Below are positions 22,255 to 40,813 of a stretch of DNA of 45,054 nt, piece after piece. Within the stretch, counting starts at the first letter, position 1. Every line of letters begins with the position of its first letter. The stretch lies in sequence record PZ445537.1; one strand, written 5' to 3'. The notes under the pieces are model-generated. The model was not told the DNA's origin and ran no database searches. It saw only the letters and a list, made by a program, of their open reading frames with translations. This DNA is from a phage. The position numbers were made by a program, and so were the translations under genes.

Positions 22255-22518
22255 TTATCCATTTTGCCGGACAGTTGGGAATTCAGACGTCAGCCACATG
22301 TCGGATTCATCAAACATTTCCTCCAGCATACGGTTCAGCTTTTCCCGATCACTTTTGCTGGCATCACTATTTAAGCCGTTCGCCTGCATCGGCTTTACCT
22401 TCACTTCGGCATCAGGAAAAATCTGGTGCACCCGCTTCGTTAGTTCAGCCAGGATGATCTCTCTGGCCCCTTGGAGCCCTTCAACATTTCGCTTGTCATA
22501 AACCAGTTCAACAAACAT
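22255..22518 (-). CDS. dinI: DinI-like DNA-damage-inducible protein
   Basis: 87 aa from the ATG with RBS GAGAGGA (track ORF extends further upstream); acidic C-terminus and overall pattern fit the DinI family; promoter carries an SOS box. Confidence 0.7.
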   Translation of the reverse strand: MFVELVYDKRNVEGLQGAREIILAELTKRVHQIFPDAEVKVKPMQANGLNSDASKSDREKLNRMLEEMFDESDMWLTSEFPTVRQNG

Positions 22519-22576
22519 ACCGATCCTCTCATAAGTGAAAAATGCCTGTGCTTGATCTGATTTCATAAAAATACTA

Positions 22577-22592
22577 CTGTATATGTATACAG
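22577..22592. promoter_or_regulatory. LexA (SOS) box within divergent promoter
   Basis: CTGTATATGTATACAG (CTGT-N8-ACAG) embedded in the minus-strand promoter TTGACT-17 nt-TATTTT for the dinI-like gene; also directly upstream of the plus-strand ORF at 22618. Confidence 0.7.
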
Positions 22593-22617
22593 TCAATAAG
22601 CGAGTGAGGGTGCGTTC

Positions 22618-22857
22618 ATGCCTCGTCAACCGGATATTCGTGCTGCTTTTATTGCGGCCATACAGCAAAACCCGAAGGGCTATCTCTGCCTGCATACAGA
22701 CAGATTCATCACTGAACTGCAGGAGAGGCACTGGCATTTCAGCCAGGCGGATGCAAATTCATGGATCGAACGATACCAGCCAGACTTCGCCGATAAGACG
22801 ACAAACGGAAGTGAGAACCGATACTGGATCCTGCGTAACATGGGGAGGGTTTTCTAA
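22618..22857 (+). CDS. hypothetical protein
   Basis: 79-aa ORF with RBS GAGTGAGGG; divergent from the dinI-like gene across the SOS box. Confidence 0.45.
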   Translation: MPRQPDIRAAFIAAIQQNPKGYLCLHTDRFITELQERHWHFSQADANSWIERYQPDFADKTTNGSENRYWILRNMGRVF

Positions 22858-23177
22858 TGGGGTTTCCATCGCCAGCCATGGATTACCAGGAGCAGCGCAT
22901 GACGATAGATGTTATCTGCGGTGTAGATAACAACTGCCGGGTTATTGAAACTTCATGCGGCTGGGCCGTTATAAACGTCAGTCTTAAGCCAGAAGGAGGG
23001 GATACGTTGCTGGTTAGCATGGACGGGAGAAACCAGTTCGTGAAGCTAATGGGCCACGCCCTGATCACTCAAGATGGTGAAGCGATAGAAGGGGAAGCTT
23101 TGAATGACGTAATGGTACACGGCGTTCTTACACATACACTTAACCAAGTAAAAGACGATAAATCGCCTGTAATGTAG
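22857..23177 (+). CDS. hypothetical protein
   Basis: 106-aa ORF starting at an ATG that overlaps the upstream stop (TAATGG). Confidence 0.45.
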   Translation: MGFPSPAMDYQEQRMTIDVICGVDNNCRVIETSCGWAVINVSLKPEGGDTLLVSMDGRNQFVKLMGHALITQDGEAIEGEALNDVMVHGVLTHTLNQVKDDKSPVM

Positions 23178-23249
23178 CGTGTAAATGTCGGGGATTATTC
23201 CCCCATTTTTCCCCAATGATTCCCCGTACAAATTTCAAACATAAAAAAA

Positions 23250-23272
23250 CCAGCCATAAGTGGCTGGTTTTG
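23250..23272. terminator. bidirectional intrinsic terminator next to attP core
   Basis: A-run, hairpin CCAGCCATAAGTGGCTGG (23250-23267), then TTTTG; on the minus strand it lies just 3' of the tRNA fragment. Confidence 0.6.
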
Positions 23273-23282
23273 ATAATAATTT

Positions 23283-23328
23283 TGGTCGGCACGAGAGGAT
23301 TTGAACCTCCGACCCCCGACACCCCATG
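23283..23328 (-). other. attP core: 3' ~46 nt of a tRNA gene (tRNA-Pro-like)
   Basis: Minus strand reads CATGGGGTGTCGGGGGTCGGAGGTTCAAATCCTCTCGTGCCGACCA: anticodon-arm remnant, T-arm and acceptor 3' strand with CCA, but no 5' half. Identity to tRNA-Pro is from memory. Confidence 0.6.
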
Positions 23329-23384
23329 TCACTGCGTTAAAGCCGCTGCAACCCTTGTAAATACTGGTGCTACGGCATGTTTGA

Positions 23385-23400
23385 CTGTATATGCAAACAG
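23385..23400. promoter_or_regulatory. second SOS-box-like palindrome near attP
   Basis: CTGTATATGCAAACAG (CTGT-N8-ACAG) preceded by TTGACT and followed by ATTTTT, closely paralleling the dinI promoter; no obvious downstream ORF. Confidence 0.4.
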
Positions 23401-23464
23401 TGCATTTTTTGCAAAATCCGCACTATATACATCAATGAGTTACGGGTAGGTTTTTCCCCATACA

Positions 23465-24652
23465 TCACCCGGCTTTAAAGACAATTTCAGCATGAGGAAC
23501 TTCTACCCATTCAACATGATTCTGGGTATAAATTTTTGTCGATTTTGCATCACTATGGGCCATCCTTGCCTGCGGATCGATACCTTGTCTTTCGAAAATA
23601 TGAGCCGCCAGCGCTCTAATCTCGTGGAAAGTTGGCCTTTCTTTGATAGGTAATTCTGCCGCTACACCTATCCGGTCCCGCAGCTCTGAAAATGCTCTGC
23701 TCAAATAATCAGGGGCCACCTGTGTTGGGTGGTTAACTTCCTTGCTTATAGGATTGCTTCTCTTTTCCAGAAGCCGGTGAACAACATAAGGACTGGCCAC
23801 ATTGTCTCTGCTGTTGTCGATGATCTCTTTCAGGGCCCTGCCGATCGGAATGGCAACGTGTGAGGCCTCTTTGTGCTGCACTTTTTGCCGATGAATGTAA
23901 AGCGTTCCGAATATTCCAGCCTCTTCCTGATCTAACCATACACATCCGCAAACCCCTTCTTTAGGTTCCTTGATCGAGTACCGGATCCGGGAAACTTCCA
24001 GGCGCGCTTGCGTAGTTTGTATTGCAAGGTCCATTGCAGTCTTCAGCCAAGGTTCAGCAGCTGCATGTATGGCCAGGAACTGCTCCAAAGTAAGTCGCCG
24101 GCGGACCTTTTTATCGACACGCCGCATTTTTTTCCGTGTTGCAGGATTATCCATCATTAGCGATTCATCCACAGCATAAGAGAATAGCTTTTTCAGGAAG
24201 CTAACTTTTCGGTTCTGAACATTGGCCGACGATTCAGAATGGTAATTTCGTATGTAGGCATTTACGTGCTCAAGCTCAATGTCACACGCGGGTATGTTAT
24301 TAAAAAATTCTTTAACCCTGATGGCATCATTATTCCAATCGTCAAGTGTGCTTTTAGACGGCTGCTCATCTTTGATCGCTCTCTCCATAATGCGATCAAC
24401 ATGTTCAGAAAACGGGTGGGCTTCACCATTAAGCCCTCCCGATTCCCGAATTAATGAATCTATCGATGGTGTGTTTTCAGGGCGCATCCTCAGGTTATAT
24501 TCTCGGGCGATGGCGATAGCCATTACTCGATCCGAACCGAGAGTTTTCTTTTTCCCAGTTATAAGCGTGAACTTATACACGCCACGATCTTTATCAAAAA
24601 AAAGATAATCAGGAAGGTGGCGGTATTCTTTTTTTCGTGGCCTTGCTGCCAT
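23465..24652 (-). CDS. int: tyrosine integrase (lambda Int family)
   Basis: 395 aa from ATG 24652 (RBS GAGGG; track start 24658 is TTG); C-terminal catalytic region HEIRALAAH…RMAHSDAKSTKIYT fits the R-H-R-Y pattern; adjacent to the attP core. Confidence 0.95.
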   Translation of the reverse strand: MAARPRKKEYRHLPDYLFFDKDRGVYKFTLITGKKKTLGSDRVMAIAIAREYNLRMRPENTPSIDSLIRESGGLNGEAHPFSEHVDRIMERAIKDEQPSKSTLDDWNNDAIRVKEFFNNIPACDIELEHVNAYIRNYHSESSANVQNRKVSFLKKLFSYAVDESLMMDNPATRKKMRRVDKKVRRRLTLEQFLAIHAAAEPWLKTAMDLAIQTTQARLEVSRIRYSIKEPKEGVCGCVWLDQEEAGIFGTLYIHRQKVQHKEASHVAIPIGRALKEIIDNSRDNVASPYVVHRLLEKRSNPISKEVNHPTQVAPDYLSRAFSELRDRIGVAAELPIKERPTFHEIRALAAHIFERQGIDPQARMAHSDAKSTKIYTQNHVEWVEVPHAEIVFKAG

Positions 24653-24654
24653 GG

Positions 24655-24864
24655 TCAACCCTCAATTATTAACTGACGTACCGCCTGATTAACAATTGAG
24701 TCAACTCCCCACTTTTCGGTTTCATAGACAAAAACTGAACCATCTACAATCCTTCCCATGAGTAATCCGTTTTCGACCCAACGTTTAATTGTACGGTTGT
24801 CAGGAATGGAGTCTTTAGTAAACTCGCGCTTACTCCAGAGACTCGCTTTCATTAGCTTTGCCAT
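24655..24864 (-). CDS. xis: excisionase-like protein
   Basis: 69 aa from ATG 24864 (RBS GAAGGA); TIKRWVENG…GSVFVYETE resembles the Xis DNA-binding fold; stop abuts the int start. Confidence 0.65.
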   Translation of the reverse strand: MAKLMKASLWSKREFTKDSIPDNRTIKRWVENGLLMGRIVDGSVFVYETEKWGVDSIVNQAVRQLIIEG

Positions 24865-24908
24865 GGTTTCCTTCTCCATAAAGCCCGGCTGCACCCGGGC
24901 TGAGTGGT

Positions 24909-29803: not shown

Positions 29804-30499
29804 TTATCCGTGCCGTTTAACAGACTGCGACTGGCTGATCATTACCTTGCCGAAAACGTAAAATCTGTCTTCATTGGACTTATCCACTGACCACTCCCGA
29901 TATTTAGGGTTATCGGAAATGACAAGAATTTTATCTGGGATCATCTGTAATCTTTTGACATAAATTTTATCATCAAAACCAAATACATAAATCCCATCAC
30001 CATCAAACTCATTGATCGAAATATCAACGAATATCAAATCACCTGGTTCAATGGTATCAGCCATGCTGTCACCACGAACGTTAATCACTTTGACCGTATC
30101 TGGTGTTCTCCCACCAAATAATACGGCGGCTCTTTCGTTGTTGTACTCAATGGACCTGATGACATCGACGACATCACTACCTTGTATATGGCCCATGCCA
30201 GCACTGGCGCTGACATCGAGCAACTCGACTCTAAACACAGGGTCACCCTCTCCATAAGCTGGATTTTTACCACTGGATTTACATACAGTAGTTTCATTTG
30301 GAGACGGTGTAAAGAGTTCTGCCACGCTAACACCAAGTGCCTTAGCATATTTGCTAAGCGATTGTTCAGTAAATGACTTTTGTTTTCCAGTCTCAACCCG
30401 TGAGACGTTCGCACCGTCAATACCTACAGCTTCAGCAAGATCTGAAATTTTCATGCCCTTTTCGAGGCGTAATTCTCTAATGCGGTTTCCTATGTTCAT
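29804..30499 (-). CDS. cI: CI-like repressor (HTH plus S24 LexA-type autopeptidase)
   Basis: 231 aa; N-terminal HTH; Ala-Gly cleavage site (SASAGMGH); catalytic GDSM and downstream Lys (VKRL); divergent from cro. Confidence 0.9.
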   Translation of the reverse strand: MNIGNRIRELRLEKGMKISDLAEAVGIDGANVSRVETGKQKSFTEQSLSKYAKALGVSVAELFTPSPNETTVCKSSGKNPAYGEGDPVFRVELLDVSASAGMGHIQGSDVVDVIRSIEYNNERAAVLFGGRTPDTVKVINVRGDSMADTIEPGDLIFVDISINEFDGDGIYVFGFDDKIYVKRLQMIPDKILVISDNPKYREWSVDKSNEDRFYVFGKVMISQSQSVKRHG

Positions 30500-39760: not shown

Positions 39761-40813
39761 ATGAAAAATACTGTAAATATAAACAGTGTTGAGCTTGTCA
39801 ACGCTGACTGCCTGCTATACCTCGCAACCCTCCCAGATAACACCATTGACCTTATTGTTACGGATCCGCCGTACTTCAAAGTGAAACCCAACGGCTGGGA
39901 CAATCAATGGAAAGGGGATGAGGATTATCTTCGCTGGCTTGATATGTGCCTCGCACAATTCTGGCGAGTGCTAAAACCTGCTGGCAGTCTTTATCTTTTC
40001 TCCGGTCACCGCCTGGCGGCAGACATTGAGATCATGATGCGTGAGCGGTTCAACGTCCTGAACCACATCATCTGGGCTAAACCGTCGGGCCGCTGGAATG
40101 GCTGTAATAAAGAGAGCCTGCGCTCTTACTTCCCTGCAACAGAGCGCATCCTCTTCGCTGAGCATTACCAGGGGCCGTATAAACCAAAGAGCGACGGTTA
40201 CGCGGAGAAGGGAAGCGAGCTGAAGCAGCATGTAATGACTCCCCTAATTTCTTATTTTCGGGATGCACGTGAAGCGCTTGGCATATCCTCAAAACAAATA
40301 GCCGATGCGACTGGAAAGAAGAACATGGTGTCTCACTGGTTCAGCGGTAGCCAGTGGCAATTACCGAATGAATCAGATTACCGGAAGCTTCAGTCCCTTT
40401 TCACGCAGGTAGCCATCGAAAAGCACCAGAACGGCGAACTGGCAACACCACACCACCAGCTGGTGGCTATGTGGCATTCGTTGAATCGCAAGTATTCAGA
40501 GCTGCTCGAAGAGTACAAATCACTTCGGCGGCATTTCTCTGTTTCCGTATCCGTTCCTTATACCGACGTCTGGACACATAAACCCGTTCAGTTTTATCCA
40601 GGTAAACACCCATGCGAAAAACCCGCTGACATGTTGCGGCAGATCATCAACGCCAGCAGTAAGCCTGGTGATGTGGTGGCTGATTTCTTTATGGGGTCCG
40701 GTTCGACCGTGAAAGTCGCGCTGGAACTTGGCCGCCAGGCTATTGGCGTTGAACTCGAAGAGGAAAGGTTTAATCAGACGATGGGGGAAATACGGGCGTT
40801 GGCAGGGGAATAA
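39761..40813 (+). CDS. DNA methyltransferase (N6-adenine/N4-cytosine, beta class)
   Basis: 350 aa; catalytic motif VTDPPYF near the N-terminus and AdoMet motif FFMGSGST near the C-terminus. Confidence 0.85.
   Translation: MKNTVNINSVELVNADCLLYLATLPDNTIDLIVTDPPYFKVKPNGWDNQWKGDEDYLRWLDMCLAQFWRVLKPAGSLYLFSGHRLAADIEIMMRERFNVLNHIIWAKPSGRWNGCNKESLRSYFPATERILFAEHYQGPYKPKSDGYAEKGSELKQHVMTPLISYFRDAREALGISSKQIADATGKKNMVSHWFSGSQWQLPNESDYRKLQSLFTQVAIEKHQNGELATPHHQLVAMWHSLNRKYSELLEEYKSLRRHFSVSVSVPYTDVWTHKPVQFYPGKHPCEKPADMLRQIINASSKPGDVVADFFMGSGSTVKVALELGRQAIGVELEEERFNQTMGEIRALAGE

Follow-up and report, generated by a model that had tools for sequence, protein, structure and literature searches.

Guerin and colleagues are said to have described, in 2009, LexA-controlled integrase promoters of integrons, and at the KplE1 (CPS-53) attL the sites for recombination proteins reportedly overlap the intS promoter. 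In phage lambda, the arms of the attachment site carry IHF, Xis, and Fis sites and an A-tract between the core and the arm-type sites (PMC4880445). Here we consider a phage attachment site in which one arm contains a sequence that resembles an SOS promoter.

The window, which is the whole 45,054-nucleotide stretch of DNA analyzed here, is a rotated copy of Escherichia phage Eeyore (PP925821, 45,057 bp; 100% identity), a lambdoid phage with the tRNA-Pro gene proL as its integration target. Phage Flotzy is a 97% relative of Eeyore, and a literature search found no publication on either phage. An earlier note on this DNA had singled out a 30-mer, TTGACTGTATATGCAAACAGTGCATTTTTT, as an SOS-box-like promoter beside attP, paralogous to the dinI promoter of the same phage and reading antisense into int. 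The 30-mer is present exactly at 23381-23410. We find it to be mostly ordinary: a look-alike in the int-proximal attP arm, conserved in a way that suggests binding of recombination proteins more than a LexA-controlled promoter.

Layout of the attachment site at proL

The GenBank annotation near the 30-mer places dinI and int on the minus strand and a UmuD-like gene on the plus strand, and adds two tiny hypothetical ORFs. The features discussed below are as follows, in window coordinates:

22575-22594, minus strand: LexA box of the dinI promoter (TTGACT-17-TATTTT, 22596..22568), the bona fide comparison
23193-23225, plus strand: three tandem 11-bp arm-type repeats of the other (left) arm, ATTATTCCCCC, ATTTTTCCCCA, and ATGATTCCCCG
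23246-23271, minus strand: strong terminator hairpin left of the core, with an 11-bp stem and a T-run
23280-23328, minus strand: attP core, 49 bp identical to E. coli K-12 proL
23370-23465, minus strand: 31-aa "hypothetical protein" of GenBank, overlying the module and judged spurious
23381-23408, plus strand: putative promoter, with a -35-like TTGACT (23381-23386), a weak -10-like CATTTT (23403-23408), and a spacer of 16
23383-23402: LexA-box look-alike GACTGTATATGCAAACAGTG, with a CTGT-N8-ACAG core (23385-23400) and exact palindrome ends
23386-23403: family-invariant asymmetric block TGT(ATA)..CAAACAGTGC, in columns outside the pattern used to retrieve variants
23401-23417: small palindrome TGCA-TTTTT-TGCA followed by GCAAAAT, with a conserved T-tract (an A-tract on the other strand)
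23430-23442, plus strand: IHF-consensus-like site CATCAATGAGTTA (ATCAA-N4-TTA)
23450-23460, plus strand: putative Int arm-type site GTTTTTCCCCA, the fourth copy of the repeat (family D1) and the right-hand module boundary
23465-24652, minus strand: int, encoding a lambda-type tyrosine integrase

The core comprises 46 nt of the proL 3' end, from the anticodon loop to CCA, and 3 nt downstream, with the tRNA sense on the minus strand. Prophages that carry the module described below are also located at proL, downstream of yejO. The terminator hairpin substitutes for the host tRNA terminator once the phage is integrated. In total the attP arms span ~270 bp, up to the int stop codon, and the 30-mer lies inside attP on the int side, ~55-80 bp from the core. 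The earlier note had placed it beside attP and facing the 3' end of int, and both placements hold: the site is 50-55 bp from the proL-identical core, and int, on the minus strand, ends with a stop codon at 23465-23467.

The integrase combines an N-terminal arm-binding domain (PF09003, Arm-DNA-bind_1), which scores 28.1 bits where the cutoff is 22, with the catalytic domain of tyrosine recombinases (PF00589). The 11-mer at 23450-23460 recurs three times in the other arm, at a spacing of 11 bp. Where both arms are contiguous, a change in the arm-type motif is accompanied by a corresponding change in the repeats of the opposite arm, and three classes can be told apart. Class 1 (Eeyore, Flotzy, and L160) has TTTTTCCCC, with TT(A/T)TTCCCC on both sides; class 2 (L143, L147, and L076) has TTTCACCCC/TTTCTCCCC, and GTTTCACCCC repeats with GTTTC(T/A)CCCCA; class 3 (L176) has TTTTACC, and GTTTTACCAG/CTTTCAC/ATTTCGC with ATTTTACCTTC. 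The locus therefore has what is expected of lambda-type arms, namely a core identical to the bacterial target, an integrase with an arm-binding N-terminal domain, and arm-type sites that co-vary between the two arms. For the presumed excisionase (74 aa, 24655-24879), Pfam and PHROG gave no match, and a BLASTP comparison with lambda Xis was not significant (E = 0.38). Its sequence matches in the PDB were judged to be repeat artifacts, and its AlphaFold single-sequence model is unreliable (pLDDT 50.6).

Several further observations concern the surroundings of the core. ARAGORN called no complete tRNA at attP or attL, in the window or in seven junction loci. In the attL of E. coli APEC O78 (L007, 2906-2983), the junction on the int side bears a full tRNA-Pro according to RefSeq, where ARAGORN makes no call; this gene, which would combine a host 3' half with element-derived 5' sequence, may be a pseudo-tRNA made by the element. 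A host origin of the module was rejected, as the region upstream of the native proL in K-12 is unrelated. Left of the proL core, L148, L138, L145, and L175 have the arm of another element, with TCCGGTG or TACCGGTG repeats, indicating that unrelated integrative elements are arrayed in tandem at proL. The corresponding place in L188 holds two ATGCAAAAT repeats instead of the TTCCCC-type repeats, and every variant has the GCAAAAT motif of these repeats in its int-side module as well (window 23411-23417).

Likeness of the 30-mer to LexA boxes and to the dinI promoter

With its CTG-N10-CAG inverted repeat and A/T-rich spacer, GACTGTATATGCAAACAGTG has the form of a LexA operator. The motif CTGT-N8-ACAG occurs three times in the window (at 22577, 23385, and 39771), against 0.47 expected. 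Sites were scored by heterology index, on an approximate matrix that was built with 24 LexA boxes of E. coli known from the literature. The site at 23383-23402 has an approximate index of 6.5, inside the 0.5-9.6 range of the 24 boxes of the matrix. It ranks in the window behind the sites at 30271 (3.4), 39769 (4.0), and 22575 (4.1), and the next site scores 12.7. In 100 windows simulated with a first-order Markov model, no CTG-N10-CAG site had an index as low as 6.5. To judge from its sequence, the Eeyore block could probably be bound by LexA, and the earlier note was right to call the 30-mer SOS-box-like.

Two of the other high-ranking sites lie within genes. The best LexA-box-like site of the window, CACTGGATTTACATACAGTA (30271-30290), is inside the coding sequence of a CI-like S24 repressor gene (29804-30499, minus strand). 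The site at 39769-39788, TACTGTAAATATAAACAGTG, coincides with approximately codons 3-10 of a late-region gene for a DNA methyltransferase (39761-40813), located between a Q-like antiterminator and the holin.

The dinI promoter reads TTGACTGTATACATATACAGTAGTATTTTT on the minus strand. The 30-mer is identical to it at 22 of 30 positions (our own count), and the local alignment score is 30, compared with 15.0 +/- 2.5 for shuffled sequences, so the likeness described in the earlier note is well founded. The DinI assignment is based on PF06183. In GenBank, the DinI CDS (22255-22737, minus strand; 160 aa) extends across the dinI promoter with its LexA box; a product of 88 aa with its start at 22521, as annotated in phage Flotzy, agrees with the DinI domain. 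Divergent from dinI is a two-gene unit (22618-23177, plus strand) that encodes a 79-aa protein (phrog_3893) and a 106-aa "UmuD-like" protein, and that possibly shares the dinI LexA box. The 106-aa protein starts at a GFPSPA motif and has no Pfam S24 peptidase match. Located beside the attachment site, it resembles, in sequence, a catalytically dead UmuD' fragment.

The idea of an SOS-box-like promoter survives in part. A strong -35-form hexamer is overlapped by a good LexA box, but the -10 is poor, as is the alternative ATTTTT at a spacer of 17. A consensus promoter scan called no promoter at 23381 on either strand; the same scan reports the dinI TTGACT-17-TATTTT. The earlier note saw no credible plus-strand ORF downstream, and we concur: a 33-aa frame starts upstream of the putative promoter, and a 53-aa frame antisense to int is unconserved, being broken or shifted in L136, L135, L166, and L188. 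The annotated 31-aa ORF on the minus strand was also rejected. In relatives, cargo separates the module from int, so the ORF is not coupled to int, and by our own reading its frame in the L003 type stops after six codons.

Distribution and conservation of the module

A 141-bp query (23330-23470) has matches in 115 of 5,426 complete E. coli genomes, all of them chromosomal, and every match inspected is at the yejO/proL junction. For ~100 of the 115 genomes the match is limited to 23378-23462, at 79-84% identity. These E. coli loci have the order proL core, module, variable genes, and an integrase 73-79% identical to Eeyore Int. The conserved unit is a module of ~85 bp (23378-23462) that has the proL core on one side and the int stop codon on the other, and its conservation ends at 23460-23462, directly before that stop. 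Throughout, it lies ~50 bp from the core and stays with the core, while 0-3 kb of cargo precedes int. The segment is thus contiguous with the core whatever the neighboring genes, as expected of a lambda-type arm.

Variants were retrieved with the pattern CAAAANNNNNNCTATNNACATCAAT (23412-23436), which excludes 23380-23411 and hence the LexA box. A scan of viral contigs yielded ~35 true loci. A scan of genome contigs with a 17-base pattern was unspecific and returned mostly chance matches; the true matches among those listed are from Enterobacter wuhouensis and Raoultella ornithinolytica. Pooled with the E. coli loci, the sample comprises 46 copies and 34 distinct sequences, and the variant counts given below are not independent events because the 34 variants are related and partly mosaic. 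One metagenomic viral contig (L170, 1-130) has an intact module from GCATTTTTTGC on and unrelated sequence leftward, with the LexA-like box and the core gone; it could be a chimeric assembly or a recombinant.

Within the LexA-like box, conservation is uneven. T23386, G23387, and T23388 are present in 34/34 variants, positions C23394 to C23403 (CAAACAGTGC) in 32-34/34, and the T-tract at 23405-23409 in 28-33/34. The invariant bases include some that are irrelevant to LexA, namely the CAA of the spacer and the TGC after CAG. By comparison, the LexA-critical C23385 is C in 20 variants, A in 12, and G in 2, and position 23384 is A in 20 of the 34. The -35 positions 23382-23385 are variable, and position 23404, which would be position 2 of the candidate -10, is A in 20/34 and T in 13/34. 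C and A at 23385 toggle between otherwise near-identical pairs (L184 and L145; L142 and L141), which suggests weak or no selection on that base. CTGT alleles have no further optimization of the spacer for LexA; that of the L003 type is the GC-rich GTGCGC (index 10.7). Across the 34 variants we did not find the pattern of a LexA operator, in which half-sites are kept and the spacer drifts. Nor does the box overlap a called promoter, and no conserved ORF, RNA family, or RNA structure follows it. Judged by these columns, it is the asymmetric block 23386-23403 that is conserved, not the LexA palindrome, and neither LexA binding nor transcription would be what keeps the block conserved in the family. 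As the conserved function of the site, a LexA-controlled promoter is at odds with the variable C of CTGT, the variable -35, and the invariant CAA and TGC.

Downstream of the block, positions 23404 and 23410 form a pair that is A..T or T..A depending on lineage, so that the palindrome TGCA-TTTTT-TGCA (23401-23413) alternates with TGCT-TTTTT-AGCA and the symmetry is kept. This hints that the palindrome could be the site of a dimeric DNA-binding protein within the arm. Conservation of the adjacent CAAAA (23412-23416) is uninformative because it was fixed by the retrieval pattern. IHF has the consensus WATCAANNNNTTR, with the core ATCAA-N4-TTR. In the IHF-like site of the module, whose ATCAA-N4-TTA spans 23431-23442, TTA at 23440-23442 lies outside the retrieval pattern and is present in 33-34/34 variants; the consensus is short, and ATCAA was fixed by the pattern.

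Eeyore and Flotzy have no cargo in the gap that separates the arm (the equivalent of 23462) from the int stop codon. Many relatives carry 0.3-3 kb of variable genes there (cargo relatives L003, L005, L007, L008, L009, L010, L141, L169, L184, L185, L167, and L147). The genes encode HTH and ImmA/IrrE proteins, an AbiL-like AAA ATPase pair, HEC-08, a TPR-like pair, RelA/SpoT-domain (toxSAS/CapRel-like) proteins, PDC-S33, and several unknowns. Going by these predicted products, the gap is a variable cargo hotspot with candidate defense genes. Cargo is mostly on the plus strand, with three architectures on the minus strand, and the CTGT state is not associated with the presence of cargo (6/6 against 3/7 architectures; Fisher p = 0.41). 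A dedicated cargo promoter was rejected because cargo occurs in both orientations and CTGT shows no association with it.

Readings of the block and comparison with known systems

We consider it probable that the 30-mer is an accessory-factor part of the int-proximal attP arm, in a lambda-type heterobivalent integrase module at proL. From the core outward, this arm would consist of ~50 bp of variable DNA, the block TGTATA..CAAACAGTGC, the T-tract and GCAAAAT, the IHF-like site, and one Int arm-type site before the int stop, an order that follows the logic of the lambda arms (PMC4880445). By analogy with the lambda P arm, the block would most likely be a binding and bending site of a recombination accessory protein, with excisionase and/or a host bending protein as candidate binders, and bending of the arm would let Int bridge the arm-type and core sites. 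The Eeyore block resembles an SOS promoter because it reads ACTGT-N8-ACAG behind TTGAC; in this allele, a transcript from the block would merely run antisense into int. The quality of the box is a counterpoint to the arm reading, as is the number of variants that keep CTGT (20/34, nearly always with A before it). So too is the likeness to the phage's own dinI promoter, which is well above chance.

The other readings turn on transcription, on an RNA, or on descent from dinI. A LexA-repressed plus-strand promoter would give SOS-induced transcripts antisense to the int 3' end in Eeyore and transcription of the cargo in relatives. TTGACT is followed at the right spacing by CATTTT or TG-n-ATTTTT; in one subfamily (L003, L006, L007, and L188), CTGT is accompanied by CATAAT or TATAAT, a good and correctly spaced -10; and the cargo genes that follow the module are on the plus strand in 9-10 of 13 architectures. 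This reading is nevertheless unlikely: besides failing the consensus scan, the site has TGGACT or TCGACT as its -35 in close, near-identical relatives of Eeyore with plus-strand cargo (L133 and L160), and no variant except, approximately, L151 has a good -35 together with a good -10. The three architectures on the opposite strand and the lack of correlation between CTGT and cargo also count against it, and SOS-induced antisense to int would oppose excision. No plus-strand terminator was found within int, and Rfam detected no family at the gathering threshold in the whole window, with only sub-threshold chance matches at 23100-23800. The sequence thus offers no promoter call, terminator, conserved structure, or conserved sequence that would mark a cis-antisense or small RNA, although one may yet be made here. 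Lineage-specific SOS control is a possibility, because the box is good, CTGT is the majority state, and the L003, L006, L007, and L188 subfamily has a good -10. On the minus strand, an int mRNA 3'-UTR hairpin (sib-like or a stabilizer), or a promoter TTGCAA-17-TATACA reading across the core, could draw on a 42-bp imperfect palindrome (23391-23432), and on an RNA fold of -26.9 kcal/mol with z = -2.2, the one exception among otherwise unremarkable single-sequence folds. The co-varying central pair 23404/23410 could also be cited in its favor, but a small palindrome in the DNA would account for it just as well as a stem in the RNA. When 28 variants are folded together, the consensus reaches only -3.2 kcal/mol, the long stem is lost, and changes at 23428 or 23389-23391 are uncompensated. 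Moreover, the module is not downstream of int in cargo-bearing relatives, and the -10 TATACA lacks the essential final T, so that we see very little prospect of such an element. We hold equally little hope for true paralogy, the remnant of a duplicated dinI regulatory module proposed in the earlier note. The identity of the two sites and their separation by 800 bp would be in keeping with it. However, the alignment is confined to TTGACTGTATA..ACAGT..TTTTT..AAATC and ends at the borders of the shared motifs, with unrelated flanks. Furthermore, the segment is a co-linear part of the ~85-bp module at proL junctions in several genera and element types, prophages and islands alike (the Eeyore-type left edge is TTTGACTGTATA), and versions without TTGAC or CTGT still have TGTATA..ACAGTGC..TTTTT.

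A further alternative gives LexA a role in recombination itself. In CTGT alleles, LexA on attL (and attP) would hinder intasome assembly until it is cleaved, tying recombination to the SOS response. In its favor, the box is of high quality and far from chance, and it lies between the core and the distal arm-type site, where the accessory bending proteins of lambda bind. Most variants have CTGT, usually with the preceding A that the LexA consensus also has, and the phage has other SOS-linked elements, such as the dinI promoter box. Against this, ATGT in 12/34 variants and GTGT in 2/34, with the rest of the block intact, mean that LexA is not a required component. The toggling of C23385 in near-identical sequences and the spacer without LexA-specific optimization also speak against it, the S24-peptidase CI repressor of the phage already senses RecA*, and full-text literature searches found no precedent or report of a LexA site inside an att arm. 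On balance we regard SOS-gated recombination as unlikely, and a working role for LexA at the attachment site of ACTGT-N8-ACAG alleles, blocking or reshaping intasomes on attL and attP, as rather improbable. Under such a scheme, excision or re-integration would be gated by LexA cleavage, independently of int and xis transcription, and the C/A toggling would naturally switch att sites between an SOS-gated and an ungated state. If true, it would be a direct, transcription-independent link between SOS and prophage excision, of which the full-text search found no example. Binding of LexA may have no consequence, may modulate the assembly of intasomes, or may govern a weak antisense promoter, and to each of these outcomes we give a low probability.

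The arm reading makes the locus a cautionary case, in which a near-perfect look-alike of an SOS promoter lies within a recombination site constrained for other reasons; motif-based prediction of SOS regulons would call this site. The analysis also provides a first sequence-level map of an uncharacterized proL-specific attP that is common to many E. coli, Enterobacter, and Raoultella prophages. The map shows the core, the arm-type sites (three in one arm and one in the other), an IHF-like site, and a conserved block with a putative accessory role.

Compared with SOS operators of E. coli and of lambdoid morons such as dinI, the 30-mer likewise has CTGT-N8-ACAG with an A/T-rich spacer and TTGACT over the left half-site followed by a T-run, and its score is within the range of known boxes. 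It differs in having no downstream gene and a poor -10, and in that the critical C is unconserved in orthologous sites while non-LexA positions are invariant. In integrons, as in Eeyore, a LexA-type box is physically tied to a site-specific recombination module and would link recombination to the SOS response, but the integron box reportedly overlaps the intI promoter and controls integrase synthesis, whereas the Eeyore box is 3' of int, inside the recombination substrate. At KplE1, as in Eeyore, regulatory and recombination functions reportedly share arm DNA beside the integrase gene. There the promoter is said to drive intS and to be controlled by IntS and TorI; in contrast, Eeyore int points toward the arm, and the only candidate regulator is the host LexA.

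A segment of lambda containing X1-X2 and the Fis site aligns weakly with 23378-23418 (score 27 against 18.5 +/- 2.7, with 2 of 300 shuffles reaching 27). Homology with the lambda Xis/Fis region was rejected, and the alignment is taken as analogy only, because it is not collinear with respect to the core. Set against lambda attP as a whole (P1-H1-P2-X1/X1.5/X2-F-H2-core-H'-P'1-3), Eeyore differs in its target, the tRNA gene proL rather than attB-lambda, and in that the arm farther from int is the one with three tandem Int sites. By our own reading, it differs also in a block that mimics a LexA box in many alleles, which the lambda arm does not. Eeyore shares with lambda a heterobivalent Int with an arm-binding N-terminal domain, repeated arm-type sites flanking the core, and an IHF-like site and A/T-tract segment between the core and the distal arm site.
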